A DNA stretch of 64,000 bases from Cyanidioschyzon merolae (GCA_000091205.1 AP006491.2); one strand, 5' to 3'. Shown: positions 1,481-49,573, counted from the stretch's first letter. Notes: generated by a model from the letters alone, not told the origin. A program made the numbers and translations.

Positions 1481-2813
1481 TTAGTCATCGCGGAGGTCGC
1501 TTCTGGTACGGTCTGCATCACTGCCTTGGACGAGCGCAGCGGACATAGATCGAATTCTCTGGGCTTGTTCACCAACCGGGATTTCCCTTCCTGGGCTTGT
1601 TCACCATCGACATCATCGCATGGCACAAGTCCACTGTCGACTGGGACAGCGTGCGTCTGCGTGTCCAGCGCGCAGGGCACTTGCCCAGCGCATGACCCAG
1701 AAGAAGCCCGTGATCGTCGAGTGCAGCACCGGTCGCGCAAAAGCATGAGAGCATCGAGGCGAGCGTTCTGTGCACGCTCACGGCATGTATCTGGCGCAGG
1801 AACAAGTGCTCAAGCAACACAGGGCCTCTTGTCTGAAGAGACTGCGTTGTAGTCACGTGGGATCACCTGATGACGGAGACAGGTCACCGCTGCAACAAGG
1901 CGCACAGAGTCTGTATACAACGAGGATGGAAATGGCAAACGCAGCGTAGATCGCAACCTTTGCGTGTGCTCGAAAGACGTCAACAACGAGCCGGAAGCGG
2001 CGAAATCGGGACTTGAGCGCTGCTATCAACATGGTTCGTCTGTCGGCACCTGAGCTGGTGGGAAAAAGATAGACCAGCGCGTTTGAAGCTGGATAGCAGA
2101 GTTAGGAACAGTAAACACGTGCAGAGACATCCTGTAGCGGCTTGTGTTGATGATAGCGAGAAGGGACCCAAACCTGAGCGTGTACTTCTGTGTTAGATAA
2201 GTTGACCCGTTCCGTTCTATTCTGACATAGTTGTAGAGGCTGCCCACTTGGTTAATTGGATCATCCAAATTTATTCTCACGGTGATGGAAGCGCATCCAG
2301 GTGTGTGTTCGCAGCCGCGGCTTGACAGGCTTCATTAGGTGCATCCGCGAGTGCCGCATCAGTGTGCTTTGGGGCGCAGCAGCTGGTGGCGCAAAGCGGT
2401 GGAAATTAAACTGCCGCTGTGGATACAGGTATACCGTTCTATACCCCGTTTAGCGGACGCAGGTTGGCTTGCGAGCTTTTGAACTCTTAGTTTGAACAAT
2501 TTGCACGCCCACGGAAATTGGCCTTGTCTACTCTGGGGAACGCGGCTGGTTTTCACGCTGGCTGGTTTTCGTTCAAAGCCCCAGGTAACCTGGCGTGCTG
2601 CACGTTTTCACCTGGCTCACCGAGCGGGAGACGTTTAGCGAGGAGGAGTGCAAACGAGCAGTGTTCGCACCGCTCTGGCAGCGCCATCGTAAAGATTGCT
2701 TTCGGCGGTGAAACTGGGGTTGCGCTCGAGGCGAAGAGCGCTACCTTGTGACCAACTTGTATTCGTTTCTGAGCCAGGTTCACTTGTGGTTGCTCGCGCT
2801 GCAACGGCTACTT

Positions 2814-4781
2814 ATGAACACCCCAGAGCGCACAACGTCAGAGGTCGAACGGCGGCCGAGCGCCACCTCTTCTGTCTTTTTGGACGCTGAGGAGAGTGTC
2901 ACTGGTTGGGACTCGGAGACGGCTACCCCCAGGCAGCAACTATCCGTTGATGTCGAAAACCTGAACAATACGGAGCTGTTAGCGGACGAGAGAGCGACAT
3001 CAGTATCGAGTGCTCCTGAACAAGCTGAACGGCAGACCGCAGGATTTGCCTATGATGCCGAACTACACGACCAGTACGTGCAGCGCATGAACTGGTGGTG
3101 CATGATTTTCTGTTGTCAATGCGGTGGTGCATGCTGTGGCTGCTTCTCGAAGAGCGATGTGCGTAAGAGTCGCGAGAGTATTCGTCGGGAGACCTTGGAG
3201 CGCCAAGCGGTCATGATCGGTGAGTTGCTCTCAGCCTACGAATATGACTTATTCAACAAGGAGAAAGAGAACGAGACCTCCTCGACCCAGCGCACACCTT
3301 TTCTCTCGCTGTTTCCATTTTCGCCGCGTTCAGGTAGGCGCCAGGAACAGCCAGACGAGCTCGTCGTCCGCCGTGAGCTCATGAAGCGTTTTGCGCTTTT
3401 ATTCGATCGTTCCCCGGGTTCTCGAAAAACTCGCAAATCGTACCCTGTCTTGCTGCCGCAGGACTGGCTACGCGGCGTTCAGCTCTACATCCTGCTTGGT
3501 GCTTTTGCTGATGAACCTGACCGCATGCAGAGACTGTGCATGAACTTGCCCCCTGTTTCGGTTGCACGCATCCAGTGGCTTCATCACTGGATGCGATTTG
3601 CAGCAGCCCCGCTGGGTCAGTATCTCCTGATGTTGGAAAGGCCGGCATCGGCTTTCATGAACTACCCAAAGTCGATGATTCACGCTCTAAGGATGCGCTC
3701 CGTCCCAGACTCGGCATTGCTAGCGGTTGCGCGACGCTGCAGAGTCGGTCTTGACCGGATTCTGCTCGCCCAGATGCGGTCGCGTACCTTTCTACCCGCT
3801 TTCATCATCGTAGAAGATCCCGTGACGGACAGCTTGGTAGTTTCCGTGCGCGGAACAATGTCCGTCAGCGATGCCTTTACGGACCTTGAAGGAACCCCCG
3901 AGCACTTTGATGTGCGCTGCTGCGAGGGATCGCCCGTGGGCGCAGGCGTCACGATAACAGGTACTGCGCACGGTGGTCTACTGAGATCAGGCGGGAACCT
4001 CTGCAAACGAATCTTACCAGTTTTGAAGCGCGCCGTCGAACGCCGGGGCGGGAACACGCGCATTATCATCACTGGTCACTCTCTCGGCGGCGGTGCTGCT
4101 GCACTGCTTGCGATCATGCTGCAGGCCCACTTGCCGAATGTATATGCGGTTTGCTTCGCTCCACCGCCAGCAGTGAGTATTGAAGCGGCGGAGAAATGCA
4201 AGGCGTTCATGGAGTGCGTTGTACGGGGGAACGACAGCGTTCCAAGAATGTCTTTGCCTGCAATCGCTCACTTCTTGCGCATCGCTTATTTGGGGAAGTC
4301 TCGCCTGAGCCGGCTGCAGAAGCTGGCATTGTTTTTCCGTTGTGGCTGTTTGTGCAAGTTTCCACCAGAGATCCGCGACGCCGTCTCGCACGTGACGTAC
4401 TCGCTTGAGAACCGGCGCATGTTTGTGCCGGGCCGAGTATTTTACATAACAGAGCCGTCAACGAGAAACACATGTGGAGACAATTCATGCTGTGGGCCTG
4501 TCTGTCTCATTGGAGCATGTGAACGCCAGTCCGCCGAGGCTGAAGCACAGGAAAGCCTCCTCCACCGCCGTCTGATTCGCGAAATTGATGCCAAGGAGCT
4601 CCGATGTCTGGTTGGCAGGAATGGCATTATCGAGCATCACATGCCTTGGGGTTATGAACGCGCGTTGCGAGCGCTGCTTCGTGAGGCGAATGCACCATCC
4701 CTCCGACGAAAGGAGCTAGAGGAGCGCAAGCGGATCAGCGAGCCTGCGAATCCGGATGATCTCCCCCTGGAGTCTCGTTAG
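2814..4781 (+). CDS. Class 3 (fungal-type) lipase domain protein, sn-1 diacylglycerol-lipase-like alpha/beta hydrolase
   Basis: A long uninterrupted ORF with the GHSLGGGAAALLA nucleophile-elbow motif (GxSxG) typical of lipase_3, preceded by a Cys-rich stretch (CMIFCCQCGGACCGCF). The ORF-track start at 2748 is GTG, and the first in-frame ATG is at 2814. Confidence 0.75.
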   Translation: MNTPERTTSEVERRPSATSSVFLDAEESVTGWDSETATPRQQLSVDVENLNNTELLADERATSVSSAPEQAERQTAGFAYDAELHDQYVQRMNWWCMIFCCQCGGACCGCFSKSDVRKSRESIRRETLERQAVMIGELLSAYEYDLFNKEKENETSSTQRTPFLSLFPFSPRSGRRQEQPDELVVRRELMKRFALLFDRSPGSRKTRKSYPVLLPQDWLRGVQLYILLGAFADEPDRMQRLCMNLPPVSVARIQWLHHWMRFAAAPLGQYLLMLERPASAFMNYPKSMIHALRMRSVPDSALLAVARRCRVGLDRILLAQMRSRTFLPAFIIVEDPVTDSLVVSVRGTMSVSDAFTDLEGTPEHFDVRCCEGSPVGAGVTITGTAHGGLLRSGGNLCKRILPVLKRAVERRGGNTRIIITGHSLGGGAAALLAIMLQAHLPNVYAVCFAPPPAVSIEAAEKCKAFMECVVRGNDSVPRMSLPAIAHFLRIAYLGKSRLSRLQKLALFFRCGCLCKFPPEIRDAVSHVTYSLENRRMFVPGRVFYITEPSTRNTCGDNSCCGPVCLIGACERQSAEAEAQESLLHRRLIREIDAKELRCLVGRNGIIEHHMPWGYERALRALLREANAPSLRRKELEERKRISEPANPDDLPLESR

Positions 4782-6480: not shown

Positions 6481-6743
6481 GGCACTGCATGCTGTATTTT
6501 TTTGTGGACAAAACGTTTACTTAGGCCAGCGTTCTCCGATTATGCGCTTTTTTCTTTTCTTCCTTTTTTGTGTGTTTTTCAGTGCGCGGTGAGGTATCCA
6601 TCAACCCCCTACTCCCATGTTCCATTACCTATACTTCGTCTCGGATATTCTGGTCGTTTCATACGTCCTATCGTGTGCCGAGCCTACCGAAAGCGACAGC
6701 AATAGCGCCTATAGCGCCGGTGCGGTCACTGCATGCTGTATGT
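6481..6743 (-). mobile_element. 5'-truncated copy of the 3' end of a non-LTR retrotransposon (LINE 3' UTR plus poly(A)), with a 16-bp target-site duplication
   Basis: Bases 6497-6727 are about 85-90% identical to 33228-33470, the 3' UTR of the LINE at 33.2-37.5 kb. On the minus strand it ends in A7 (TTTTTTT at 6497-6503 on plus). It is flanked by near-identical direct repeats GGCACTGCATGCTGTA (6481-6496) and GGTCACTGCATGCTGTA (6727-6743). It lies about 170 bp upstream of the POLA1 ATG. Confidence 0.6.
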
Positions 6744-12817: not shown

Positions 12818-13170
12818 ACATGAAAGGAAACCACACTCGCGCTGGGACGAACACCGGACTTGAATTTTTTTGAACGGCAGCGATTGGCAGCGACTCGGCA
12901 GGCGCCGAACTCGTAGTCGTTGCGGTATCTCCGAAAAGGAAGCAGACAGCGCCCAGATTCTGAACGGAAAACGAGTGACGCCGCTTAGTTTTTCCAGAGC
13001 TCATAATTCACGGGAGTCAGGTTCCATGGACAAGAGGAGTCATCCCCACAAATTGAATGACGGCATCAGGACCCGTTTTTGCGTGCCGAGCACCGTGCCG
13101 TGCAGAGGCGAATGCTCCGCACGCGGTTTTCAGAGCGTCCATGTGCGTGCGGACGACACTCAGCAAGCGA

Positions 13171-13450
13171 GCATGAGCATAATCATAAATATAAATAAGC
13201 TTGAGCACGAGCACGAGCACGAGCATAATTCTAAATATAGACATAAGCACGAGCATGAGCATGAGCATAATCATAAATATAAATAGAAACATAAGCACGA
13301 GCACGAGCATAATTCTAAATATAGACATAAGCATGAGCGTGAGCATGAGCATAATCATAAATATAAATAGAAACATAAGCACGAGCACGAGCACGAGCAA
13401 AAGCATGAGCATAATCATAAATATAAATAAGCTTGAGCACGAGCTTGAGC
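13171..13450. repeat. AT-rich minisatellite of about 3.3 units with an ~84-bp period, built from (AGCAYG)n runs alternating with AATCATAAATATAAATA or AATTCTAAATATAGACATA modules
   Basis: Read directly: the period between 13246, 13330 and 13414 is 84 bp. The block is bounded by AATAAGCTTGAGCACGAGC at both ends. Confidence 0.8.
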
Positions 13451-18898: not shown

Positions 18899-20509
18899 AT
18901 GCGTGAGCGCCTCCCCAGTCCAGGCCGTTCGGGAACGCCTGCGCTGCAGTCTACGCGTGGGCACGATTCGCTGCAGCGGCTGCGCGTTCGGCCGGCGAGT
19001 TTTTCACAAACTAGCAGTGCAGCCGACGTACCAACTAGTCCTTTAGTGCTACCACCACTCGTTGGTGGCATGCAGCAAGGTGTTTCGGATTTTGGAAGAG
19101 CCTCAACTGGTCGGGGCCCTCTGTCTAGTGACGCGCCGCCTCCAAGCAATCGAACCGTCGGAATAGGCGGATCCGAAGGGGTACAGAAAGGCGATGACGA
19201 GGGCCAGGACGGCTTTTTCATAGGTAACAACCTGTTTCTCGCAAAAGGCCTCACAACAGCCGCCGCTTTGGCGGACGAACAACTGACGGGCGCGGCGCCT
19301 AGCCGGCTGGGCCCCAGCGGAAACGGCGAAAATAACCCACTGACGCTGAGACGAACGCTTTCCTGTATAGAGATAGACCCGTTTGGAAAAGCACAAGTAC
19401 GCGTTTACACTCGAGAGGAACTCATTCGAGAGCTGCGTTCAGAGTCCGTTACCGGGAACACTGCGGTCGACGTGGTCGAGCTTGCCTTCATCCGAGGCGA
19501 TGCCCGCGAAGAGTCGCAAATGTCTGGCGCGCTGGATCTGGCGCCGGTGACTGGTGGAAATCGACGCACCAAGTCATCAAAATCGAAGAAGAGGACCAAG
19601 TACGGCCCGATCCAGTCTCGCGATCTACGGTTGTTGGACCCGGCGTTCAGTGTGGAGCCGGCCTTGCATGTACGCGATCACGTCATTCTCGCGGTTTTCG
19701 ATAATCATATCCGAGCTGCAATCCAGTCGCATCGCCTGTTTATTTTTGATCACGAGTCCAAAAGAGCGCGACGGGCTACTGAGTTCGTTGTGCAACGACT
19801 CTCCCGAGTGTCAGCCGAGGAGGCGGTGCCCTTTGAGTTCGTTGCGCTGGAGGCGCTTCTCATGGCCACTTGTGCGGACATAGAATGGATGATGAGAAAC
19901 GTGGAGCCATTAATTGAGCGTGAACTAGGAGTTCTTTCAAGAGATCTGCGACGGAGTAATATCGAACGGCTCCGGGTCGATGAGCGCAGGCTCTCTCTTC
20001 TGCTTTCCCGAGCGCGGAATTTCGAGCACCTGCTCGAGGACATCCTCGACGAGGACGAGGACATGAGCCACATGTACTTGACCGAAATGCGTTACCATCC
20101 GGAAAAGTATCGTCTTCCTACCGATCACGAAGATGTGGAGCTGTTGCTCGAGAACGCGCTGCAGACGGTGCAGAGTCAGGTTCGTCGATTGGAGCTGCTC
20201 GATGCCGGCATCAATAACCTTGAGGAGATTCTGGAAATCAAACTGGATATATCTCAGAATCGCATCTGGTCGTTTAATATTTTCGTGCACCTTTGCGTGG
20301 CGACATTCTTCTTAGCTGCAATACCTGCTGATTTTTTCGGAATGAACTTGCAAATACCGCCTGACAAGGATCCGAATGTATTCTGGCCGTGGTTGCTGGT
20401 TTTTGGATTGAATATGGGCTTGGCGGTGGCCTTCTTTTCGCTTGCCATGCTGTTTCTTAAGCGACGACGATTGCTCTTTGGTCTCTTTAAGCGCCATCCG
20501 AGTGACTAG
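18899..20509 (+). CDS. Mrs2/CorA-family Mg2+ transporter (GMN motif)
   Basis: A C-terminal two-TM region with FFGMNLQIP (the canonical GMN), preceded by DEDMSHMYLTEMR and coiled-coil segments. An ATG at 18899. A low-complexity N-terminus could act as a presequence. Confidence 0.8.
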   Translation: MRERLPSPGRSGTPALQSTRGHDSLQRLRVRPASFSQTSSAADVPTSPLVLPPLVGGMQQGVSDFGRASTGRGPLSSDAPPPSNRTVGIGGSEGVQKGDDEGQDGFFIGNNLFLAKGLTTAAALADEQLTGAAPSRLGPSGNGENNPLTLRRTLSCIEIDPFGKAQVRVYTREELIRELRSESVTGNTAVDVVELAFIRGDAREESQMSGALDLAPVTGGNRRTKSSKSKKRTKYGPIQSRDLRLLDPAFSVEPALHVRDHVILAVFDNHIRAAIQSHRLFIFDHESKRARRATEFVVQRLSRVSAEEAVPFEFVALEALLMATCADIEWMMRNVEPLIERELGVLSRDLRRSNIERLRVDERRLSLLLSRARNFEHLLEDILDEDEDMSHMYLTEMRYHPEKYRLPTDHEDVELLLENALQTVQSQVRRLELLDAGINNLEEILEIKLDISQNRIWSFNIFVHLCVATFFLAAIPADFFGMNLQIPPDKDPNVFWPWLLVFGLNMGLAVAFFSLAMLFLKRRRLLFGLFKRHPSD

Positions 20510-30639: not shown

Positions 30640-33225
30640 ACGCTGTTCGAAAGTCGCACGTCGCCGACCGTGCACGGTAGTAGCGGGAAACGCGCGTTCG
30701 ACATAGCGTTTCCAGCTGACGTGTAGACGCCTCCCCGTCTTTCTCGACCGGCCACCGACTACTGGTTTCAACTTTTTCTCATATAGTTCCACTTTGAGAG
30801 GTTGCCCCACAAGTCCGCTCTTGTCGTCTCTGGAGGTCTTCTCTCCAGCACCGCACATCTCCTTACATTGATAGCGGCATTAAAGTCAAGATTCACGAAC
30901 TCCATACGTTTCTTGCCATCGTTCGTTGTACTTACTAGTGCAAGTAGCCCTCGCACTTTCGCCCTCCTTTCCATTTGCTCTTCGGTCAGCGGTCCGTACT
31001 TTTTTATATCCTCAGGGCTCCGCTGACACTTTTCCATCTCGACCCTTTGAAGTGTACATCCCAGTTCATGGTGTGTATAGGATGTTCGGAACTCATCTAC
31101 AGTTACTGTGACGAAACGCCATGCACACTCTTTGTACGTTCTTGTCGTTGGAGCTGGTGTAGTTCCTTTTTGGGTCATCAAGCGCCCTGCTCCGTACGCT
31201 ATTACAAGCCTCTGACTTTAATCCTCCTTCAAGGCGCTCAACTCATTGAAACAATTCACGAATGAACGCTGCTTCTGACAATACAAGTTCATACGCAGAC
31301 GAGCCCACCGGGGCTTTGTATACTCTTTCCACAGGGCATCCCAATGCGCCATGCGAACTTCCATGAATTTCCAAAAAGCATCAAGGTCCGCTCCTCGGCT
31401 CGTCACCTCGCTCAAAGCTTCCAGGTGCTCCTTCATTCCTGCATTCCATGTCTCAGTTTTTTTCCTTGCATTCATGATTTCCGATTCTCGATCGTATCTC
31501 GCTCTCGAGAAGCTCAAAATTCGCATGTCTTTCTGACGTAAGTTACCATCAGTATCATCTTCCACACGCCTGGGCAAAGCGATGGTTATGATATTTGTGT
31601 TTCCAGGGTCCGCGTCAACGACAAGGTCGTTATGCTCCACCTCCTGCGTCGCAAGTTCCGCTTCCTTCTTATCTTCATGCTTCGCCGCGGCAGCCATACA
31701 GTCGTTATCCTCCACTTTCTGTGTGGCAGGATCCGCCGTCTTCATATCTTCATGGTTCGCCGAGGACGGAACTGGACGATCTCTCTTCAACCGCCGATAG
31801 TGTATACACAAGGCTACTCCATCGGTTTCGATCAACCCAGTAAGTACCTTTTGTTTGCTGGCTTTGAGACGTTTGAAATCGAAGAGACTCTTCCAGTACG
31901 TCTCCCGGTTTTCACCGGAGAATTCCTCCCTGCTAACACTGAACTCCGGACTGATCCCCTTCATGATGCCGTAAAGGATTCTGGAGTCGACAGTCACAAA
32001 ATGTGACTTGATGTTGCACATTGGAACCAGGTTGAAGCGCTTCCCCATTAGGACAGCCTTCCGTCTCTCCCACTCTTCATTGTTTTCCCCACTCAGCTTC
32101 ATCTCCGCTTTGCGTTCGAGTTCACGGTCCAAAAACACGAAGTACCTCAAGATGAGGAGGCAGTATCTTTCCTTATCTTTTTTCAACTCTGATACCTTTT
32201 CTGATGGATTCACCAGCCCCAAGACTGCACGGTGCTCTTGTATAACCGCACGGATCACAGAAGCTTCATTCGTGCTCTCGTTTGACGCCTTCTTCTCGAC
32301 AAATTCGACCTCATCTTCACGCTTGCGATCTTTCATGATGCCATTGATAATCGCCCATTTTCCATTGCGGGATAGGCCCGGGTAGAGTGCAACCACGGCG
32401 CGTATTAAGAAACGTTCGAGGTTCGTTGTCAAATGGTTCTTCAGGTTCGTGATGCACTTCATCGCCCCATAGTCGTAAATATCGCGGTCACCCCTGCATC
32501 GAGTACCGTTGAAGCTGTAGAAGGGATGTTTTTCGTGGAGGGCACGCACCAGCTAATGTTCCGTCCGCGCTCTCTCTGTGCCAAGCATCAGGTGACGAAT
32601 AAACGTCTTGTCGAGAAACTCGTCCGCAACCTCGACTATTTCCATGTGCGTCACGTCTTCGTACATCTCCCTCGCGCAATGCATCAGTTCTGACGACGCC
32701 TTGACAATACTCTTGGAGTACGAATCGAGACGTTTTTTGATAGCGTCTCGCAACTCTTCCCTGTAGGGATCCTTGATATGTCCAAGAAGGAAGGATTTCA
32801 CCGCCTTCTCGTTGTACAGCCGTCTTTCTTGCCGCCTTCGACGTAGGGCCTCCCCCCTTCGGTTCCTCTTCTCTTTCTTTTCTTCTGGACTCGGCACTGT
32901 TTTTTGTTTTTTTTCTGGCAGCCGGCGACCTTGGGCCCCCAGGATCGTGCACTTTCTTTTCCATAACTTTCCTTTTTAGTATTTTTGAGAAAGAACGCTC
33001 TTTGAACCCTTCTGTTATATGCTGCGAAAAAACACTTGACTAGACTTGTTTGAGAGCTGACACAAAAATGAACTGAAAACTATACGTTGCCAAGATCTCA
33101 ACGGGAATCCGACTTTTACAGCTGAACAACACGCTACTGATCTCAATCGAGTTTCCCTTCAACGGCGACATACGCGTCGTGTCTCATGCCTGCCAGATCC
33201 CCCAGGTGCACTCACCGGGCGCGAC
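30640..33225 (-). mobile_element. TnpB/Fanzor-like element, copy A (decayed), forming the left arm of a large inverted repeat
   Basis: This is the reverse complement of 37493-40100, with about 95% identity across the ORF and about 80% in the 3' flank. The inner boundary at about 33222-33225 matches B's inner boundary at about 37493-37495, and the outer homology fades at about 30640. Confidence 0.7.
30768..32964 (-). pseudogene. TnpB/Fanzor-like RuvC nuclease gene, copy A, disrupted by a frameshift, TAA and TAG stops and a 6-nt deletion
   Basis: Compared with copy B it has an extra A in an A7/A8 run near 32905 (an N-terminal frameshift), the shared in-frame TAG at 32550-32552, GGG to TAA at about 31215 (the ALKED* site), and an in-frame 6-nt deletion (RWASKKGT to RLMTQKGT). 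The RuvC-like motifs are retained: [16 protein letters not shown] and LDFNAAINV. Confidence 0.7.
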
Positions 33226-33227
33226 TC

Positions 33228-36200
33228 TTTTTTTCATAGACAAGACGTTTACTTGTGCCCGCATTCTCCGATTGTGCGCTTTTTCTTTTCTTACTTTTTT
33301 TTTCAGTGTGCGGTGACGTATCCATCAACCCCCTACCTCCATGTTACATTACTTGTACTTCGTTTTGGATATTCTGGTCGTTTCATACGTCCTATCGTGT
33401 GCCGAGCCTGCCGAAAGCGACAGCAACGGCGCCTAAAGCGCCGGTGCGGTCGCTGCACGGAGACAGAACGGCTTTTCCATACCACAGAGGGCGTCGGCTC
33501 GAGGCATGGTTCACCCGACGTAGAATCGGGTCTCGTCGTCAGTTTGAGCTCGGATAGTCTGCGGATGCAAGCTTGTCTTCGCTGCACGATACGCTGGAGA
33601 AACTTGGCTGTTAGGATACATCCTAGGAGCCGCCTCTCTCCTTCCTGGTCATGCATGGAATGCGTTGTTGTCGGTTGGCAATGCGAGTTTGTGCTTGACA
33701 CCCACCACTGTGGGTAGGCGCAGAAAGCGCACTGGGCCCGTGTGCGCATCCGATACGCTGGACCTCATGCCTAGAACGTAGCATGTGAGTTTGTTCGCCA
33801 CTAATGAGCGCTGAGGCTCGGTTAGCGGACCATCAGTTACCAGTGCTACACTCCGAGTGAGTGTCCGGCCTTCGACAATCACGGTGATGTCCAGCTGCTG
33901 CTGTCCCCCAAGGAGCTCGCTGCGCTCCTGCTTCCAGCGCGGGCAATGTAGGCCTAAATGTGTCAGCGTCTCGGGTATCTCGTCTCGACAGCAGGGACAG
34001 TGTGATTCCCAGTGCGATTCCAGTGTTCCTATACGGCTTAGAGCCGGTGCTGCCAGCCGGAAGCCACCAACGCGGATTTTGGCGAGCCACTGGGTACCTC
34101 GAGCAAGTCCCGGGAATTCCAGCCTCCTACCAGTACTTGCATGTGTATGCTAGGTTGTAGTTCCGGTATAGAGTCAAGCCGGCGTTACTGGCGCGACTGG
34201 TTCCGTGTATACGTTCCCATATGGTTGTTTGGACCGTTCGCTTGAGGCGGCGGGAGCCTTGTGCATTTCTGGGGAACGATTCGAGCGCATTTTCGCCTAA
34301 GAGGCGCTTCAGCCAAATATGCGTTGATTTCATCCAAGTGTTCTTGCGGTGCGTTGGGGTTTGCATGAAACTCCGACTGAACCAGGTGCGCATGGTGGGC
34401 CCTTTGGCCCATATGCGTGCCCGGCAGCCTGCTGCTATCGCTTCTGTCGAGGGTATTTGGAGTTCAAGTCCGAGTGCCAGCGCGGTGGTTGCTCTGCTCT
34501 GCACTGAGCATCAAACAACGACAACGAGTCGCATTGCCCTGTTGGCGGCTGTCTGCGGACGCGAGGCATTTGTGTGCTTCATGCCGCACCACCCAGCACC
34601 CCAGGTCGCAGGCTGGATGATACACATCCTTCGTGCGCTGGTACGAATTGCTATGCAGATAGAGGGGTCGGATGGGACTGGGCGTGCGATCGCTGTACGT
34701 CTATGCATCTTGGCGATCATCTCGTCAACGTGTGCGTTTTCGTCGAGCGTCGGCGTTAGACAGACCCCCAGGTAGCGATAGTTTTCCCCGATCGGAATTT
34801 CCTGATTCTGCAACCGCCACGAGCGATTGCGAATGCGCTGCGAGTCTCCATGGATGGCCATGACGCCGCACTTCGATGCTCCTACGTTCATCTCCCAGCG
34901 ATCGGCCCAGGCGCTGGCTTGTTGCATGCTACCCGCAAGCGTTTCCGGGGCGGGTGCCAACAGCACTATATCGTCCGCAACTAGACGGCCTGCGAGGCGG
35001 TTCCTATGTGAGGGCTCCTCATCGGGCATCTCCCCAGTCTATCCACGGCACCTCAAGCCCGTATTGTCTGCAGTTTTTCAGCGGATCGTTGATGAAGATG
35101 TTGAAAAGGAGCGGGGATGCGCGCTCGCCCTTTTGTAGTCCACGGCGTATTCTTATACAAGGGGTTCTTGAGCCGTCGCCCAGTCGGATGCGCATCCACG
35201 AGTCTGCATAGAGCGCACGGAAGAACGCTAAGCACTTTCCGGAGACTCCGGCTCGTTCCATCTTCAAAAATAGAGCCTCGTGCGGGACCGTGTCAAAGGC
35301 CTCTTGGAAGTCGATGAAGCATACGTAAGTTGGTTGTTGGCCGCTAATGGAGCGACGTTGCGCCACTTCAATGAGGGTCAGGGCATGGTTCATGCACTCA
35401 TCGCGGCTCCGGAATCCAGCCTGTTCTGGGGCGAAGAACTTGCGTTCCTCGAGGCCTCTCTGGATCCGGTTCGTGAGGTTGGCGCAAAAGTAGCTTCATG
35501 ATTGACGGGATGAGGCCGATAGGCCGGTAGATGTTCATGTCTTTGTGTGTAAGAGTCCTTTTTGAGGATCGGTACGACCTCGGCAGTCCTCCGTACATCT
35601 GGGATGCACGCTTCTTCAAACATGCGTTGAATGAGCTCCAGAAGGCGTTTGCATAAGATTGTGTCAGGTTCATCTGGTATCGATGGTGTCCCTGTTGTCT
35701 CGTATTTTGGGGTCACCAGTTTCATCCACTCCGCAGGGATACCGTCGATGCCAGGTGTTTTGCGGTTGCTTGAGCATAGTAGGGCCCGAACAGATTCAGG
35801 CCAGAAGATTGGCTCGTTCCATTCCGGTACCGGGTCGAGGCGCGGTAGTTCTGCAGCATATTGGTGCCAATAGATTCGGTCTTGGCAGTTCCCAGTTGCG
35901 TCTTCATGCAGCTCTATCCCGTGGTCCGTCCAGGCCTCATTCACTGAGGCACGCTCCGTCCTCAGCGCTTCCTTATAAACGATTGATGTGAGCCGCAAGC
36001 ACTTTTTTGGTGGGTCCAGTCTCGATCGAATGTAGCGCTAGGTCTCATCTTCGTTGGTGCCCTCGAGCATAAATTCCGTCAGGGAGTCGATTTTGCGGTT
36101 TCGATCCTCTCGTTTGTCTTCTCTGGAACGTTTCTTCTTTCTTTTGATAGCGTCCTCATGTTGCGCCTGTAGCGCCGGTAGCGCTGCCTTCGCTTCCTTG

Positions 36201-37470
36201 TCTCCGGCGTTGGCGCGTATGGCGGTGCGGTTGACGATCTTATAGAGTCGGTGGCATTCATCATTCCGAGTTTTGGTACGTCATTCCAGGTACCGCGGTT
36301 TGCAACTGTTGTGTTCTGGTGCAAGCAGTCCCAGTTCTCTGGCAATCTTCTGATTCCCATCTACATACTCGCGTGCCAATTGGTCAAAAGATTTGTATGC
36401 ACGGCTTTTCGGATCTTCAGCGCTGTGAGCAGGTGCCTGGGTTTGGCGACGTTTTTCTTGGGTTCCCGCTGGGGTGCCCTTTCGGGGGATCACTTGCGAT
36501 GGGCTCGTTTGGGGGGGTCTTCTTTCTATTCTTCTGTTTTTTCTTGTCGGTCTTCCTCGTCTTCTTCGGGCTCTTTCCTGAGCTGCTTTCTCTGGATATT
36601 TTGCATCTAAGTGGATCATGAGGTTTCTGTGCCTCCTTCTCCGTATCTGGTTGGGTCTCTTTACCTAATGCAGAGTCCTCCACTTGTATCAGTTCTTCGT
36701 TACAGTACTGGTAATTCGAAATCTCGTCGTCTAGTATCGAGGCCGTCCCACAAATATTCCATGATACGAAACCTATCGAGTCATAGCGCATACGGGAATA
36801 GGAATAGCGCTACGGTACTCCAGAGATACGTTGTCGATTTAGATACACGCTTCACGAGGTGTGTGAACGTACATGCCACCATTGCCCTCTGCATTCCAGT
36901 CGTTCATTGAGTGTCTGCCGCAGCGCTAGCGCGGAATCAGAAGTACATTAGTAAAGGTCGATTCGAATGCGACCTTTATCTTGCCGGACGCGTGTACCTC
37001 TCCTCAACCACAGGGGATACTCTACGAACCAACCTTTCAGCGGCTTCGTATCCGCTCCCCAAATACATAGGCGGGCAAGTCGCTTACTCCACCTTCGACA
37101 GTGAACATACTGGCAGCCGTCTTCAAAAGTATCCGCCGAGATTGTTTCCAAAGTTGAGGTAGGTACGCAAGGTAGGAGGTACAACTGAGCCCGAGTTCGA
37201 GGATAGATCCAGTATTTGCGCCGAAACCTGCAGCGTTGATTCGGGAGGGGCGAATGACTGCTCAGAACTCTCGTCAATATTTTCTGGTGCTACTGCCTCC
37301 GCCCCTCCGTTCGTTGCGGTCAAGGTCCCTGGCGTGGGCTTCCTTCCCCGTCGCTTAAACACCCCGCGTTAACCCATTTTCAGAGCTTCTCTGGAAAATC
37401 TAGACCTCTTAGGCGAGGGTGGTGTGTGGGGCTTTTAAGATAGTGGTTCTTTGATAAATAGTTTGCGACT
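33228..37470 (-). mobile_element. Non-LTR retrotransposon (LINE) of about 4.2 kb with a decayed single APE+RT ORF and poly(A)
   Basis: Read on the minus strand from 5' to 3'. It begins with an APE-like N-terminus (FVSWNICG at about 36760). RT motif 0 follows (KTPGIDGIPAEWMK), then motif 1 (VVPILKK) and motif 2 (YRPIGLIPSIMKLL). Next come motif A (FIDFQEAFDTVPH), motif B (RGLQKGERASPLLFNIF) and motif C (FADDIVLLA). These lie in at least three different frames, so the ORF is frameshifted. A C-terminal CCHC (HCPCCRDEIPETLTHLGLHCPRWKQER at about 33900) and a ~420-bp 3' UTR end in A7 at 33228-33234. The flanking hexamers GCGACT(C/A) at 33221-33227 and 37464-37470 are a possible short TSD. Confidence 0.7.
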
Positions 37471-37492
37471 AGTTTGCATCACGCTCGGTGAG

Positions 37493-40100
37493 TGCACCTG
37501 GGGGATCTGGCAGACATGAGACACGACGCGTATGTCGCCGTTGAAGGGAAACTCGATTGGGATCAGTAGCGTGTTGTTCAGCTGTAAAAGTCGGATTCCC
37601 GTTGAGATCTTGGCAACGTATAGTTTTCAGTTCATTTTTGTGTCAGCTCTCAAACAAGTCTAGTCAAGTGTTTTTTCGCAGCATATAACAGAAGGGTTCA
37701 AAGAGCGTTCTTTCTCAAAAATACTAAAAAGGAAAGTTATGGAAAAGAAAGTGCACGATCCCGGAGGCCCAGTGTCGCCGGCTGCCAGAAAAAAACAAAA
37801 AACAGTGCCGAGTCCAGAAGAAAAGGAAGAGAAGAGGAACCGAAGGGGGGAGGTCCTACGTCGAAGGCGGCAAGAAAGACGGCTGTACAACGAGAAGGCG
37901 GTGAAATCCTTCCTTCTTGGACATATCAAGGATCCCTACAGGGAAGAGTTGCGAGACGCTATCAAAAAACGTCTCGATTCGTACTCCAAGAGTATTGTCA
38001 AGGCGTCGTCAGAACTGATGCATTGCGTGAGGGAGATGTACGAAGACGTGACGCACATGGAAATAGTCGAGGTTGCGGACGAGGTTTTCGACAAGACGTT
38101 TATTCGTCACCTGATGCTTGGCACAGAGAGAGCGCGGACGGAACATTAGCTGGTGCGTGCCCTCCACGAAAAACATCCCTTCTACAGCTTCAACGGTACT
38201 CGATGCAGGGGTGACCGCGATATTTACGACTATGGGGCGATGAAGTGCATCACGAACCTGAAGAACCATTTGACAACGAACCTCGAACGTTTCTTAATAC
38301 GCGCCGTGGTTGCACTCTACCCGGGCCTATCCCGCAATGGAAAATGGGCGATTATCAATGGCATCATGAAAGATCGCAAGCGTGAAGATGAGGTCGAATT
38401 TGTCGAGAAGAAGGCGTCAAACGAGAGCACGAATGAAGCTTCTGTGATCCGTGCGGTTATACAAGAGCACCGTGCAGTCTTGGGGCTGGTGAATCCAGCA
38501 GAAAAGGTATCAGAGTTGAAGAAAGATAAGGAAAGATACTGCCTCCTCATCTTGAGGTACTTCGTGTTTTTGGACCGTGAACTCGAACGCAAAGCGGAGA
38601 TGAAGCTGAGTGAAGAAAACAATGAAGAGTGGGAGAGACGGAAGGCTTTCCTAATGGGGAGGCGCTTCAACCTGGTTCCAATGTGCAACATCAAGTCACA
38701 TTTTGTGACTGTCGACTCCAGAATCCTTTACGGCATCATGAAGGGGATCAGTCCGGAGTTCAATGTTAGCAGGGAGGAATTCTCCGGTGAAAACCGGGAG
38801 ACGTCTTGGAAGAGTCTCTTCGATTTCAAACGTCTCAAAGCCAGCAAACAAAAGGTACTTACTGGGTTGATCGAAACCGATGGAGTAGCCTTGTGTATAC
38901 ACTATCGGCGGTTGAAGAGAGATCGTCCAGTCCTGCCCTCGGCTGCGCCCGCGACGAAGGATGAAGATAAGAAGGAAGCGGCTCCTGTAACGCAGGAGGT
39001 GGAGGATAGTGACTTTCTCGTTGACGCGGCGAAGGATGAAGATAAGAAGGAAGCGGCTCCTGCGACGCAGGAGGTGGAGCATAACGACCTTGTCGTTGAC
39101 GCGGACCCTGGAAACACAAATATCATAACCATCGCTTTGCCCAGGCGTGTGGAAGATGATACTGATGGTAACTTACGTCAGAAAGACATGCGAATTTTGA
39201 GCTTCTCGAGAGCGAGATACGATCGAGAATCGGAAATCATGAATGCAAGGAAGAAAACTGAGACATGGAATGCAGGAATGAAGGAGCACCTGGAAGCTTT
39301 GAGCGAGGTGACGAGCCGAGGAGCGGACTTTGAAGCTTTTTGGAAATTCATGGAAGTTCGCATGGCGCATTGGGATGCCCTGTGGAAAGAGTATACAAAG
39401 CCCCGGTGGGCTCGTCTGCGTATGAACTTGTATTGTGGGAAGCAGCGGGCGTTCGCGAATTTGTTCAATGAGTTGAGCGCCTTGAAGGAGGATGGGAGTC
39501 AGAGGCTGGTAGTGGCTTATGGAGCAGGGCGCTGGGCGTCGAAGAAAGGCACTACGCCAGCTCCAACTACGAGGGTGCACAAGGAGTGCGCAAGGCGTTT
39601 TGTTACAATACCTGTAGATGAGTTCCGAACATCGAATACAAACCACGAGCTGGGATGCACACCCCAGAGAGTGGAGATGGAAAAGTGCCAGAGGAGCCCT
39701 GAGGAATTTGCAAATTACGGACCGCTGACGGAGGAGCAAATGGAAAGGAGAGCGAAAGTGCGAGGGCTACTTGCACTATTAAGTACAACGAACGATGGCA
39801 AGAAACGTATGGAGTTCGTGAATCTTGACTTTAATGCCGCTATCAATGTAAGGAGATGTGCGGTGCTGGAAAGTAGACCTCCAGAGTGGACACGAGAGAA
39901 CTTTTTTGGATAACCTCCCAAAGTCGAACTATATGAGAAAAAGTTGGAAGCAGAAGTAGGTGGCCGGTCGAAAAAGGCGCGGAGGCGCCTGCGCGTCGAC
40001 TGGAAACGTTTCGTGTAAGGCGCGGTTTTCCCGCCACTACTGTAAACTGCCGACGTCGTTCGACTTAGAGCGGCGTTGGCGGCTGTCCGTTCAGGGTGGC
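37493..40100 (+). mobile_element. TnpB/Fanzor-like element, copy B (the more intact one), forming the right arm of the inverted repeat
   Basis: A 246-bp 5' region, an ORF at 37739-39913, and about 190 bp of 3' flank that is still homologous to copy A. Homology ends about 35 bp upstream of the SMC1 ATG at 40135. Confidence 0.7.
37739..39913 (+). CDS. TnpB/Fanzor-like (IS605 OrfB-like) RuvC-fold nuclease candidate, 725 codons, interrupted by one in-frame TAG at 38147-38149
   Basis: A RuvC-I-like motif ([17 protein letters not shown]....DG), a segment resembling the TnpB strand that precedes the zinc ribbon ([20 protein letters not shown]), a degenerate zinc-ribbon region (H..GC...C), and a RuvC-III-like DxNAAxNI motif ([12 protein letters not shown]). 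A basic NLS-like N-terminus ([31 protein letters not shown]). An internal 75-bp tandem duplication ([15 protein letters not shown]...) sits just before RuvC-I. The ATG is at 37739. The assignment is by motif pattern only. Confidence 0.5.
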
Positions 40101-46099: not shown

Positions 46100-48205
46100 A
46101 TCCCTGGAATCTCTCTATAAGGGCATCTGCTGAGCGCGCCGCCGCACTTGGAAAGCCTACACCAGAGCCTGATCCGCAGCCGGGGAACCGCATCGCATAC
46201 GACCCGCGCACAAGTGACGCTGCACGCCGCGTGAGTGGCGCGGTTTTCGGAAGGGAAGAAGGGGCAGGTGCGAGGCGTGCCTCATGGACGTCGTTACAAG
46301 TCCAGCGCGTCGTGCATCGCAGCGAAGCGGTGCGTCTGCGAGTGGGCGCTCTGCATGCCAGCCTCTGGGACACTCGGTCTCAGCAGAAACGAACAACCCG
46401 CCTGCGTAGGAGCTTTTCATCGCTGTATCGGTTGCATCTGAGCCTGAAAACAAAAACCCCATTTTAAATGTTGCGGCGTTGGTTTTGGTGACGTCTGCGT
46501 AGCGAGTCCCAACTCGGATCTCGATACCTAGAAACTCGCTCTGAGCTTGCAGATAGCACACACATGCCGAAAACGCGCTCCAGACACGATTGATCACCTG
46601 CTGTGCCATTTCATGTCATCCACAGGTCATCCACCGACGGCTTGGAAAAGTTGCAGTGGCGCGGTAGAGGGTCAAAGTATGGCGTGGACGCAGACGATGT
46701 TGCGCGGCAATGACAAGCGCTGCCCGGGCATTTTTTCGCACGTGTCTGCATTGAGTGGAGCGAGTCGCCGTAGAAAACTCGGACGTGCGCGTGAAAGCTT
46801 TTCTTTTGCTTCCCATGGCCATCAACACCAGTCTCTGCGGGCTTTTCATGCGACTGCCTCTTTATCCGCTCTCTTATCTCCGGATTTGCGTACGGCTATC
46901 GCTGCTCTCCGACAAGCTCCGATATCAACAGTCGAATATTGTTGATGGCAGCGTTATTGTACAGATATCATCGCTTCCGGCTATTGTCGACGCCTATGAT
47001 GCAGATGAGGCAGTTGCGAATTACGTTTCAATAGCCATTTTCATGTTCTTTGGCTGCAGCACCGATGCGTCCGTAGCAGCGGTGGCGCTCGGCTGAACTC
47101 AGGGATTTTCACGTGTCCACTATATATCCTGGTCCGGGGCCTGCACTGTGGCGCGTAAACGCTTGTTGCATTGCTCGGAATGTGCACATAACGGATACGA
47201 AAGGTGCCTCTCGATGCACGCCTCCGTTTCCGAGCCCGGTGCCGTACCCAACGATCTCGGGCCTCTTTTAGGCGATCTCCTCGGCGTGTGCTCTGTCCGC
47301 TCCGAGTACAAACGCACGTTGCTCCGTTCGATAGCGGATTCGAAGAACGCGGTTTGGTTCTTGATGAAATAAGTAGCAGAAGGGGCACCAAGAATGCGGA
47401 ACAACTCGAGAAATATCGATCTCCCTACGCTGCGTTCGTGGAAAGCGTCGACGAACCCTCTATTGGATGCGATCGCTCCGATGATTCAGGTTTGAGTCTA
47501 AGACACTGTTCCATGCAAACAGAACGGACGGGAGCCTCTGGGAGCTCATCTCGCGAGAGGTATAAAGTTAGAATTTTAGTGAACTTTCTGCTTGAGCTTC
47601 TGAACAAGTCGTCATACGATGACATCGAATGTTTCCCCCAAAAAAGAATAAGTCCGACCACTGACAAGCAATTCGATAAAAGTAGCTTTCCAGCTCTATG
47701 TTAAGCATTGAAAGGGAGAAAAGGTTGCCGCATCTTCGAAACTTTAACTTCTAGACGCAAGGTCCCGCGAGCCGGTCGAGTGTGCCGGGCTTGCGCTCCA
47801 TGTGCCTCTGCAGTGGCGGATGCTGCTGTGAGCCTTGAACAACTCGTCCGCAATGCAGTGTACTCTCGGACTCGGAGCGGCCAGGCCGTGTCTGGGCGTT
47901 GCCCTGGTCGCGGTGGACTCTTTGCATATCGCTCCGCGCTGCCGCATGCAGCGCGTCTGTCCGCGCGGCTCGCAGGCTCCCAGAATGAGTACGTTCTCCG
48001 ATTCTGCCACTGGTGAATCACACCTCGAGGTACCACTCTCTAAGGTATGGCAAAGCCGTTCTCTCCCTATGATGCATACGCACCAGCGATATAAGCACTA
48101 GTGCAGGTGCAGCAAGGCAGGTACTCAGCACTCGATAGAACCTAAGAAACGACCAGTCTCTCCGAGAGAAACAAAGGGTAATGGAACCTGAGCGCAGGAT
48201 GCAGC

Positions 48206-49573
48206 ATGATAGACAATTTCCCAACCCCCGATGTACATCCTGCAAGCCAGGGTTCACGGTCAATCTTAACGATTTGTCGAGCAAAAAAAATCGTGTATCC
48301 GGGAAGCAGCGATCCCCAGTTGCGCGCTGATGCTAGGCATCTGGTACAGGCTCCCGCACGGTCATCGTTGCCCCAGGGCGCGATCGTTGCCACTGCGCCG
48401 CGCCCTTGCATTTTGTCGCACTCACTGGAAGCCGCTGGCGCTGTTTCGCCGCAGCGTTTGCGTGGCGCCTGCGCCTTCGCTCGCCACGAGCGCGTGCGCA
48501 CGCATGCGCCTGCGACCTCAGAGGCGCGCGCACGTCCGGCCCTAAAGGGTAACAGTGCTCGCAGATACGCTGCGAACGGTGGGCACGTGAGGATGACTGC
48601 TTTATCCGCGGCCTTTGTAGGGTCTTTGGGACCTGGTACACGAATTCAATTGCGCTGTACGCGTCAGCAGTCAAGAGTCCCTCTGGGGAGCGGTGGAGCG
48701 AGTGCTCGGAGCAGTTTGCGCGCGGGACGTCCACGGCGCCTCGCGTGCTGCGCGCCGGAGGCCAGCGGTCTCTCTGAGCCTATCTTTCAGACGAGGACCT
48801 CAGCTGATGCTGAGCACGCCAGTTTTCCAAACGGTCGCAGTGTTCCGAGGAAAGAGTCTGGAGCCGCGTTGCCGGAAGACACCGGCGAGCACGCTGGGAG
48901 CCTACCAGCTTCGTTGCCTGTCGACGTGCCGTCACTTGGGACCGCCCCAGAGAGAACCAGTTACTCTGTTTGTCCCGAGCTGTTGTCGTCGACCGCAAGC
49001 ACTTTCCGACCGTTTACTCCGACCGAGGCGTTTGGTGGCCTTGGCGTCTCGTGGGACGAGCTGGAGCCCCCGCAGCTCGGGGAACGGCTCTCGATTTTCC
49101 AGCGGGTAGCCGCTGACGTCGGGCCGGAAGCGTGGGCGCGAATTGCCTCTGCTGAGAAAATGGACGGTGACGAGGATGAACAGCTCGCCACGGCGGAGGG
49201 CTTCGACCGACTGCGGAAGCACCAGTTGCTGTTTGATTTCGAAATAAACCCCTGCCGCAAAGAAGAGGCTCGCGAGATGCTCATCCATCGAATGCGCAAA
49301 ACGCGGCAGCGCATACTGTATTTGCAGAAGGAGATTGACAAGCTTCCGGAGCGACTGGAGAAACTCATTGCCGAACTGGATGTATGCACAGAGCGCGGCG
49401 ATCGACGGCGGCGTCAGGACGTGCTAGCGCTCGGGAACCGCCTCTGGGCGCGACATCATGAACTGATCGACATCATCGCACGGGAGGAAGTGCGCATGGA
49501 AGAGTACTTGTATGTCTGGGGGCGTCTGCGTTGTAGCGATGACTCGGCGGATGTAACTCAAATTGGGGTGTGA
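48206..49573 (+). CDS. Hypothetical protein with a C-terminal coiled-coil region
   Basis: An ATG-initiated ORF. The N-terminal half is low-complexity and may be non-coding. The C-terminal ~150 aa look protein-like (EINPCRKEEAREMLIHRMRKTRQRILYLQKEIDKLPERLEKLIAELD...). I see no recognisable family. Confidence 0.25.
   Translation: MIDNFPTPDVHPASQGSRSILTICRAKKIVYPGSSDPQLRADARHLVQAPARSSLPQGAIVATAPRPCILSHSLEAAGAVSPQRLRGACAFARHERVRTHAPATSEARARPALKGNSARRYAANGGHVRMTALSAAFVGSLGPGTRIQLRCTRQQSRVPLGSGGASARSSLRAGRPRRLACCAPEASGLSEPIFQTRTSADAEHASFPNGRSVPRKESGAALPEDTGEHAGSLPASLPVDVPSLGTAPERTSYSVCPELLSSTASTFRPFTPTEAFGGLGVSWDELEPPQLGERLSIFQRVAADVGPEAWARIASAEKMDGDEDEQLATAEGFDRLRKHQLLFDFEINPCRKEEAREMLIHRMRKTRQRILYLQKEIDKLPERLEKLIAELDVCTERGDRRRRQDVLALGNRLWARHHELIDIIAREEVRMEEYLYVWGRLRCSDDSADVTQIGV

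Follow-up and report, generated by a model that had tools for sequence, protein, structure and literature searches.

The locus and its features

The window analysed here is a stretch of 64,000 nucleotides from chromosome 9 of the red alga Cyanidioschyzon merolae 10D. Its central feature is a dead long interspersed nuclear element (LINE) lying between two inverted mobile elements that appear to belong to the Fanzor1 type. At 18899-20506 the window codes for a host protein that agrees in full with BAM80057.1/XP_005536343.1 of C. merolae 10D. The gap between the two inverted arms is exactly 4254 nt long (33225-37478) and is filled by the LINE and a few bases on either side of it, which agrees with the position between the inner arm ends given in an earlier note that was made from the sequence alone. 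The features of the locus are listed in Table 1. LINE coordinate 1 corresponds to window position 37478 and Fanzor coordinate 1 to window position 37479.

The copy was compared with other loci of its family. A metagenome scan with the region preceding the reverse transcriptase (RT) yielded 78 of these loci, further ones were obtained via protein look-ups, and all were mapped to both coordinate systems. The comparison loci are mostly short-read metagenome contigs and carry labels such as L001 or L034. At least four contigs are chimeric across LINE copies; we therefore relied on local junction sequences and treated long-range linkage cautiously. Switching within a contig (L023, L024/L027, L048) shows as an identity gradient or as a flank that is shared on one side only.

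Table 1 Coordinates of the LINE copy, the flanking Fanzor elements and related features in the window. APE, apurinic/apyrimidinic endonuclease; APE+ and dAPE, with and without APE; ORF, open reading frame; TSD, target site duplication; UTR, untranslated region.
Feature	Position	Strand	Remarks
LINE copy body without APE (dAPE), 4.25 kb	33228-37476	minus	Ends set by family copies with unrelated flanks
LINE 5' start, templated			CAAACTAGTCGC; opposite end of body is the A7 tail
LINE 5' UTR (~685 nt)	36792-37476	minus	Head to head with 5' region of right-arm Fanzor
Family ORF ATG (MRYDSIGFVSWNICG...)	36789-36791	minus	First ~22 codons are the kept N-terminal edge of APE
dAPE deletion junction GACGAC-GAGATT	36720-36731	minus	APE+ relatives have 774 extra nt here, the whole endonuclease
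RT domain over three frames	34760-35550	minus	Pfam RVT_1, E 2.8e-22 (stitched frames)
C-terminal CCHC zinc knuckle CPCCRDEIPETLTHLGLHCP	33943-33999	minus	Matches zf-RVT weakly (E 0.02)
Family 3' terminal motif GTAAACGTCTTGTCTATG and A7 tail	33228-33252	minus	A7 at 33228-33234; motif also kept in second LINE-derived family
Bases TG between LINE and right-arm Fanzor terminus	37477-37478
Bases GAG between LINE and left-arm Fanzor terminus	33225-33227
Right arm, complete putative CMe-1A-type Fanzor1 element	37479-40066	plus	ORF 37739-39913; 5' terminus adjoins LINE 5' end
Left arm, second putative Fanzor1 element, inverted	30651-33224	minus	5' terminus TCGCGCCCGGTGAG... adjoins LINE A tail
Further copy of the LINE family, 5'-truncated 3' end, 230 nt (6497-6726)	6483-6740 including TSDs	minus	Exact 14-bp TSD TACAGCATGCAGTG
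Second-family element, ~0.65 kb	47657-48297	plus	~70% identical to LINE 3' UTR, same terminal motif, A8 tail

Identity and state of the LINE copy

The element is a LINE whose family encodes a single ORF with APE, RT and a C-terminal CCHC knuckle. The earlier note had described a decayed LINE of about 4.3 kb with RT motifs in different frames. Both points hold, since the domain is spread over three frames of the minus strand and matches RVT_1 when these are stitched; the family consensus matches the same profile with E 5.1e-27. The single ORF with APE, RT and CCHC that the note had also proposed is borne out for the family by its APE+ members, but not for this copy, from which APE is deleted. 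No ORF1 was recognised in the translations or in the Pfam search of the copy.

The RVT_1 profile is generic for RTs and would also admit a pol fragment of a long terminal repeat (LTR) retrotransposon or another RT-bearing element. This reading was rejected as extremely improbable. A sequence search of the PDB gave R2 and human L1 ORF2p as top solved structures, not LTR-type RTs. APE, CCHC and A tail are present in the family, a truncated copy is flanked by a TSD, and the repeats on either side of the LINE are inverted Fanzor elements, not LTRs. Self-comparison and Pfam searches of copy and consensus found no LTRs, integrase, RNase H or protease.

Among database proteins, C. merolae 10D entries named 'retroelement, alive' (84-86% identity) and many hot-spring metagenome fragments (80-93%) come closest. 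A homologue search with APE returned only three unnamed matches, and Megablast of the element against phage records returned none. Nozaki et al. (2007, PMC1955436) reported 26 non-LTR (class I) elements in the 10D genome, and the copy at 33228-37476 is one of them.

The copy is dead. Its identity to the family consensus, built from 85 fragments, is 93.3%, and it carries private frameshifts at ~36517 (+1), 35489 (+1), 34124 (-2) and 33730 (+2) as well as two stop codons (36283-36281 and 36040-36038). Another frameshift, which leads to a stop at 35021-35019, is common to several copies, including both annotated 10D proteins, and the corresponding truncation ...WIDCGDAR is shared by P0002, P0004, P0005 and P0007.

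At least 15 family copies stop at the same 3' base, GTAAACGTYTTGTCNATG(A)6-7, and then pass into unrelated sequence. The 3' end at 33228 is secure because these copies, with their different flanks, and the truncated copy with its TSD all end alike, and this is exactly where the earlier note had placed it, at the A7 tail behind the CCHC region. The terminal motif GTAAACGTCTTGTCTATG occurs only twice in the window, and a chance occurrence is not expected. At the other end, the note's boundary of about 37470 has to be moved by six bases to ~37476 according to the comparison with family copies. Eleven independent copies without an upstream Fanzor start with CAAAC(T/C)AGTC(G/A)CAAACTATTTAT, preceded by a variable A-rich leader.

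The family moves by target-primed reverse transcription, as indicated by the 5'-truncated copy at 6497-6726, which is 86% identical to the LINE and combines an A tail at its 3' end with the 14-bp TSD. The last ~7 bases of its 5' TSD resemble the LINE at the truncation point, which points to microhomology. Other 5'-truncated copies include L091 (from coordinate 2999) and L035 (from inside APE). For the copy at 33228-37476, a 6-bp TSD GCGACT had been proposed in the earlier note. The hexamer does occur near both ends of the LINE, but on the 5' side AGTCGC is LINE-internal in at least 11 copies with unrelated flanks, and on the 3' side AGTCGC overlaps the Fanzor terminus TCGCGCC, so that this duplication was dismissed. 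Besides GCGACT, no other repeat was found around the copy. Likewise, no TSDs of full-length copies were found in the metagenome contigs, in which such searches are unreliable (L024 and L027 share the 3' flank while their 5' flanks differ).

Family-wide loss of the endonuclease

The segment that this copy lacks lies between LINE coordinates 754 and 755 (window ~36726/36725), directly after ...ASILDD. It is 774 nt long, is present in L034, L035/L080 and L048, and encodes DIRILALQET...GDFN...SIDHIL...SDHWPI. In L034/L035 it matches Exo_endo_phos over profile positions 1-225 with E 2.7e-12. A check against this profile had been suggested in the earlier note; it succeeds with the APE+ relatives and gives no match in the copy itself, whose N-terminal ORF has no Pfam match. 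APE DNA was found nowhere in the window.

The junction GACGAC-GAGATATCGAAT is identical in every copy without APE (~45 sequences from at least 20 independent loci), which argues for one ancestral in-frame deletion that was then propagated. The endonuclease was thus not largely destroyed by decay, as the earlier note had assumed from low-complexity sequence behind an APE-like start, but removed by one clean event. The K-rich low-complexity stretch, which comes after the ORF start MRYDSIGFVSWNICG at 36791, is a native linker, because the same tract ...ITNYQY...KETQ... with its K-rich part also stands directly behind APE in APE+ copies. Identity is 98-99% among APE+ copies and ~83-91% in pairwise comparisons among dAPE copies. 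Since the dAPE consensus retains a near-continuous ORF of ~1,100 codons, the dAPE master was coding-competent for RT and CCHC.

The APE segment (L034:1338-2111, L048:6714-7437) opens with GTAAGG, so that the left deletion edge reads GAC-GTAAGG. TACTAAC (TGCTAAC in L034), followed by 18 nt and then CAG (GCAG), lies a few bases before the right deletion edge. Sequences of this kind resemble the signals of introns, of which this genome has very few. They hint at a splicing origin of the deletion but do not establish it, as the junction lies off the AG. The idea that L048 is an APE+ allele of the L027 locus was discarded, as the contig is probably chimeric.

Two further kinds of variant copies were seen in the family. 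Three independent groups (L014/L025/L030, L077/L087 and L036/L038) share a start point within the APE segment, 45-48 nt short of its end, and this suggests a structural variant rather than random 5' truncation. Another subfamily (L039, L040, L041, L045, L065, L084 and L090) lacks coordinates 1804-3969, that is, most of RT and the C-terminus; it has been mobilised in trans, because at least four different 3' flanks occur.

The Fanzor arms

Each arm is a complete element, as both of its homology ends match those of independent copies, for instance L003 (~80% identical). At the right arm, family homology continues ~12 nt past 40066. Identity between the two arms amounts to 97-99% in the inner 1.47 kb and falls to 80-90% in the outer 1.1 kb. 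Both carry the same in-frame TAG (38147-38149 and 32550-32552), which splits an otherwise ~720-codon Fanzor ORF and is read through at this position in the intact 752-aa relative P0124. The shared TAG fits homogenisation between the arms. On the evidence of their sequences, the arms are two old, separately diverged Fanzor copies with a homogenised inner part of ~1.5 kb and not a recent fold-back duplication; gene conversion accounts for the homogenisation most simply. A tandem repeat of ~75 nt within the Fanzor ORF (38946-39104 and 31610-31768), which encodes acidic repeats and varies in copy number from one Fanzor copy to another, lies at the boundary between the 99% and the 90% identical parts of the arms.

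TnpB-type motifs including ...C...C and NLDFNAAIN were read by eye in the Fanzor ORF. The ORF of the window gave no Pfam match and no significant PDB sequence match, and the only trace of DUF8286 (PF26935) is a weak, precomputed domain annotation of related metagenome proteins. The putative assignment to Fanzor1 is based on the motifs, copy number and size together with the description of CMe-1A (PMC3627910). CMe-1A is reported there as a Fanzor1 element of ~3 kb with ~150 copies that are ~80% identical to the consensus and have neither terminal inverted repeats (TIRs) nor a recognisable TSD (Bao & Jurka 2013, PMC3627910). Its 5' 635 bp equal a separate 70-copy element, TE-N2_CMe, and the class of CMe-1A was left as unknown in that account (PMC3627910). 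A repeat of ~3.2 kb is reported to make up about 5% of the C. merolae genome (PMC1955436), and from its size and abundance it would be the same repeat as CMe-1A.

Recurrent junctions between LINE and Fanzor ends

The right-hand junction of the window (class A) joins the Fanzor 5' terminus to the LINE start as ...CACCGAGCG(C/T)GA-TG-CAAACTAGTC... and was found in five sequence variants, represented by the window together with L023, by L001, L013, L033 and L050, by L058, by L059/L060 and by L084. At L033, L058, L059 and L084 a complete Fanzor is followed by host DNA that is mutually unrelated and does not match the window. Derivatives of the arrangement join Fanzor 2214 to LINE 41 (L007 group), Fanzor 81 to LINE 137 (L062/L076/L081) or Fanzor 2380 to the point where the APE segment ends (L077/L087), and all of them keep the Fanzor outer end. 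The left-hand junction type, in which the A tail abuts a Fanzor 5' terminus, recurs in L014/L025/L030 and in L061 with different filler bases, and an A tail lies close to a Fanzor 5' terminus in L062 and L064. L062 shows the complete order once more, with an inverted Fanzor, a LINE and a Fanzor.

To count these contacts, independent LINE ends were defined by clustering according to flank. Within a Fanzor or at most 100 nt from one lie 9 of 26 LINE 5' ends and 7 of 19 3' ends, compared with ~6% expected (p = 1.2e-5 and 7.4e-5). Five 5' ends and three 3' ends fall exactly at a Fanzor 5' terminus (p < 1e-7). The remaining ends (17/26 and 12/19) are not at Fanzor elements, and the family is thus not a target-specific LINE in the sense that most copies lie at one sequence. 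Among 25 Fanzor 5' termini, none belonged to a head-to-head Fanzor pair that lacked a LINE. Apart from the window, the junction at the LINE 5' end is present at four or more loci and that at the A tail at three or more. We regard it as firm that the contact between the LINE and Fanzor termini belongs to a systematic association.

Two candidate observations at these loci were rejected. The 3' flank of L084 was considered as a diverged Fanzor end, but its alignment score equals that of shuffled sequence. L023 was considered as an orthologue without the left arm and proved to be a chimeric contig in which identity drops from 99.7% to 90.7% along its length.

A second LINE-derived family at Fanzor termini

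A shorter element of ~0.65 kb has a LINE-like 5' start and a conserved tail ...TAAACGTTTTGTC...A8, and occurs as solo copies at several loci. The copy at 47.6 kb of the window, for which no TSD was found, overlaps the start of an ORF at 48206-49573. In L003, L028/L037/L049 and L102 the second family adjoins the Fanzor 5' terminus and points away from it, and in L103 its tail points toward the Fanzor. By size and position it is probably the TE-N2_CMe part of CMe-1A. For the two LINE families together, no consensus 3' stem-loop was predicted.

Fanzor copies that were sampled independently of the LINE have a LINE-type element at the 5' terminus in five out of six cases. Of four loci fetched via the Fanzor protein, L091 has a LINE 5'-truncated at 2999 directly at this terminus, the short element occupies it in L102 and L103, and nothing lies there in L092. 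Elsewhere in the window, a short direct or tandem repeat of ~140 nt with 76-96% identity (13168-13450) is unrelated to LINE and Fanzor.

Origin of the association

In the most probable account of the locus, the element is a dead dAPE copy of the C. merolae LINE, with an endonuclease deletion common to its subfamily and with Fanzor ends on both sides as an instance of a recurrent association. The subfamily lost the whole APE by one in-frame 774-nt deletion and nevertheless multiplied to at least 20 loci, and the copy has later gained ~7% substitutions, frameshifts and stop codons, so that it is inactive today. It may have arisen by target-primed reverse transcription of dAPE RNA, with the nick supplied in trans by APE+ relatives or by a pre-existing break. 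Its adjacency to Fanzor would stem from a systematic process, either the integration of LINE cDNA at Fanzor 5' boundaries or the joint mobilisation of Fanzor and LINE. Several points weigh against this account. No TSD surrounds the copy or the Fanzor-LINE unit, so that the integration step is undocumented at the locus. Trees of the LINE and of the Fanzor parts, both of them star-like, show no congruence and thus do not demonstrate common descent of a composite. In the PDB sequence search the RT scores alike with R2 and L1 (67 versus 56 bits), and neither this search nor the APE homologue search or the literature consulted decides between an L1/Tx1-like and another clade. Due to the chimeric contigs (L024 versus L027, L023, L048), the junctions themselves are better secured than their long-range connection to host flanks, and some loci counted as independent may be orthologues of co-occurring diverged strains, though their flanks are unrelated.

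The earlier note had favoured a single LINE insertion into the short, nick-prone loop of an existing Fanzor palindrome, with GCGACT as TSD. The LINE does fill the space between the arm ends exactly, and the hexamer lies near both of its ends. Nevertheless, such a one-off insertion is very unlikely. The 5' hexamer lies inside every family copy and the 3' one overlaps a Fanzor terminus, the arms are unequally diverged (80-99%), the same junctions occur in L084, L061 and L091 where there is no palindrome, and an empty palindrome was not encountered among the 25 termini. A nick-prone loop would hence not explain the adjacency. Only slightly less improbable is the reverse direction, in which Fanzor elements insert preferentially beside LINE ends. 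In the window, Fanzor termini touch LINE termini on both sides; moreover, Fanzor1 is reported to recognise AT-rich target-adjacent motifs (TAMs; PMC13565253), and LINE ends are A-rich. On the other hand, Fanzor is also found at internal LINE positions (L091 at 2999, L064, L039/L068) with the remaining LINE not beyond it, and in class-A loci the A-rich LINE leader has not been moved to the far side of the Fanzor. We give this possibility low weight because displaced LINE halves were never found.

Two models were weighted similarly, each of them tentatively. Breaks or nicks at the Fanzor 5' boundary, caused by aborted excision or a nuclease, may capture LINE cDNA without a TSD; such cDNA, especially that of endonuclease-less copies, would be primed from or joined to the ends in either orientation. 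Both orientations indeed occur at the same Fanzor base, the LINE breakpoints vary (coordinate 3, 2999 in L091, and A tails with filler GAG, GAGAA or none), the Fanzor-associated copies are dAPE, the Fanzor junctions lack a TSD, and the L084 copy of the deletion subfamily apparently joined a Fanzor independently. Such a hot spot, possible as it is, does not account easily for five class-A junctions that are base-identical and lack the A-rich leader of free copies, which speaks for one event and not five. There is also no sign that Fanzor boundaries are ever cut, the known Fanzor guides are reported at the 3' end and not the 5' end (PMC13565253), and the window would need two Fanzor termini that were already within a few bases of each other.

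The base-identical junctions count in favour of a composite retroposon, which we regard as conceivable but doubtful. The antisense right-arm Fanzor and the LINE would form a unit of 6.8 kb, whose transcript would extend from the Fanzor outer end as far as the LINE tail and serve the LINE RT as template, and CMe-1A, as Fanzor plus a LINE-derived module of ~0.65 kb, would be its short non-autonomous form. The identical Fanzor-LINE junction recurs at five or more loci, with homology to the flanks stopping exactly at the Fanzor outer terminus, and the three kinds of derivatives (Fanzor 2214 to LINE 41, Fanzor 81 to LINE 137, Fanzor 2380 to APE end) keep this outer end together with the LINE 3' part. 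A diverged Fanzor subfamily is joined to a diverged LINE module with the same junction and orientation (L003, L028, L102), and divergence is similar between LINE-associated Fanzor pairs (82-90%) and LINE 5' UTRs (83-90%). The description of CMe-1A as lacking TIRs and a recognisable TSD and as beginning with a 70-copy element (PMC3627910) would fit as well. However, the composite has no TSD around it, neither in the window nor in L084, transcription would have to start exactly at the Fanzor outer terminus, and LINE tails against Fanzor 5' termini (left arm of the window, L061, L014, L103) stay unexplained. The L084 LINE shares the 1804-3969 deletion with Fanzor-free copies, which points to independent joining; congruence is also not seen between the star-like trees, and the equation of the second family with TE-N2_CMe depends on size and position. 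A more far-reaching version, which we offer as speculation and consider rather unlikely, is that Fanzor1 elements of the CMe-1A type are LINE-type retroposon passengers and not DNA transposons, with their gene antisense and head to head with the LINE or module and the unit copied by the LINE RT. In its strongest form, the endonuclease-less LINE would depend on DNA ends or cleavage associated with Fanzor.

Significance

Taken alone, the LINE copy is nothing unusual, since it is a dead representative of a family that had been counted in 2007; what is already known comprises the element as one of the 26 and the Fanzor repeat since 2013. The family, in contrast to the single copy, offers a clear example from nature of in-frame endonuclease loss in a LINE that nevertheless went on to spread to many loci, and the ends of LINE and short elements lie at Fanzor 5' termini far above chance. 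The mobility of CMe-1A has been unexplained since 2013 (PMC3627910). With a finished 16.5-Mb genome, 26 LINEs and ~150 Fanzor copies, C. merolae 10D is small enough for a direct test. The portions of the literature that were searched contain no mention of the endonuclease-deletion subfamily or of the base-precise contact between LINE and Fanzor 5' terminus.

Comparison with known systems

The family resembles APE-type LINEs with a CCHC motif (L1/Tx1-like) in its single large ORF with N-terminal APE, RT and CxxC...H....C knuckle, in its short A tail and 5'-truncated copies, and in the 14-bp TSD with microhomology at the 5' junction. It differs from them in that no ORF1 was recognised and in that the tail is fixed at 6-8 A after a conserved motif, which makes recognition look stringent.

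SpIREs and HAL1-type elements are internally deleted or spliced LINE derivatives that retrotranspose. As in these, one internal deletion has spread to many loci, and a second subfamily lacks 1804-3969 including RT. Unlike in these, precisely the endonuclease is lost through the C. merolae deletion, and the reading frame is preserved.

Tx1L and Tx1D of Xenopus are target-specific LINEs that reside in a second mobile element. The likeness consists in a LINE that recurs at a single place in another mobile element of higher copy number. In C. merolae, however, only about one third of the copies are at Fanzor, in both orientations, with several breakpoints and with no specific target duplication.

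Endonuclease-independent L1 insertion at DNA breaks is said to have been described by Morrish et al. in 2002. An endonuclease-less LINE, TSD-free junctions and a location at discrete DNA ends are shared features. There is no evidence of breaks in C. merolae, though, and APE+ relatives could act in trans.

The 10D retroelements reported in 2007 belong to the same genome and the same family, and the frameshift at ...WIDCGDAR is common to the copy and the annotated proteins. In the available text of that report they are only counted, called closest to non-LTR retrotransposons and mapped in its Figure 1, and the APE-deletion subfamily, the element ends and the adjacency to Fanzor are absent from it (PMC1955436). 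Finally, the arms of the locus appear to correspond to CMe-1A, whose description, as far as its accessible text goes, does not mention a LINE (PMC3627910); here, the partner at the Fanzor 5' terminus is of LINE type, either the full 4.25-kb element or the ~0.65-kb derivative.

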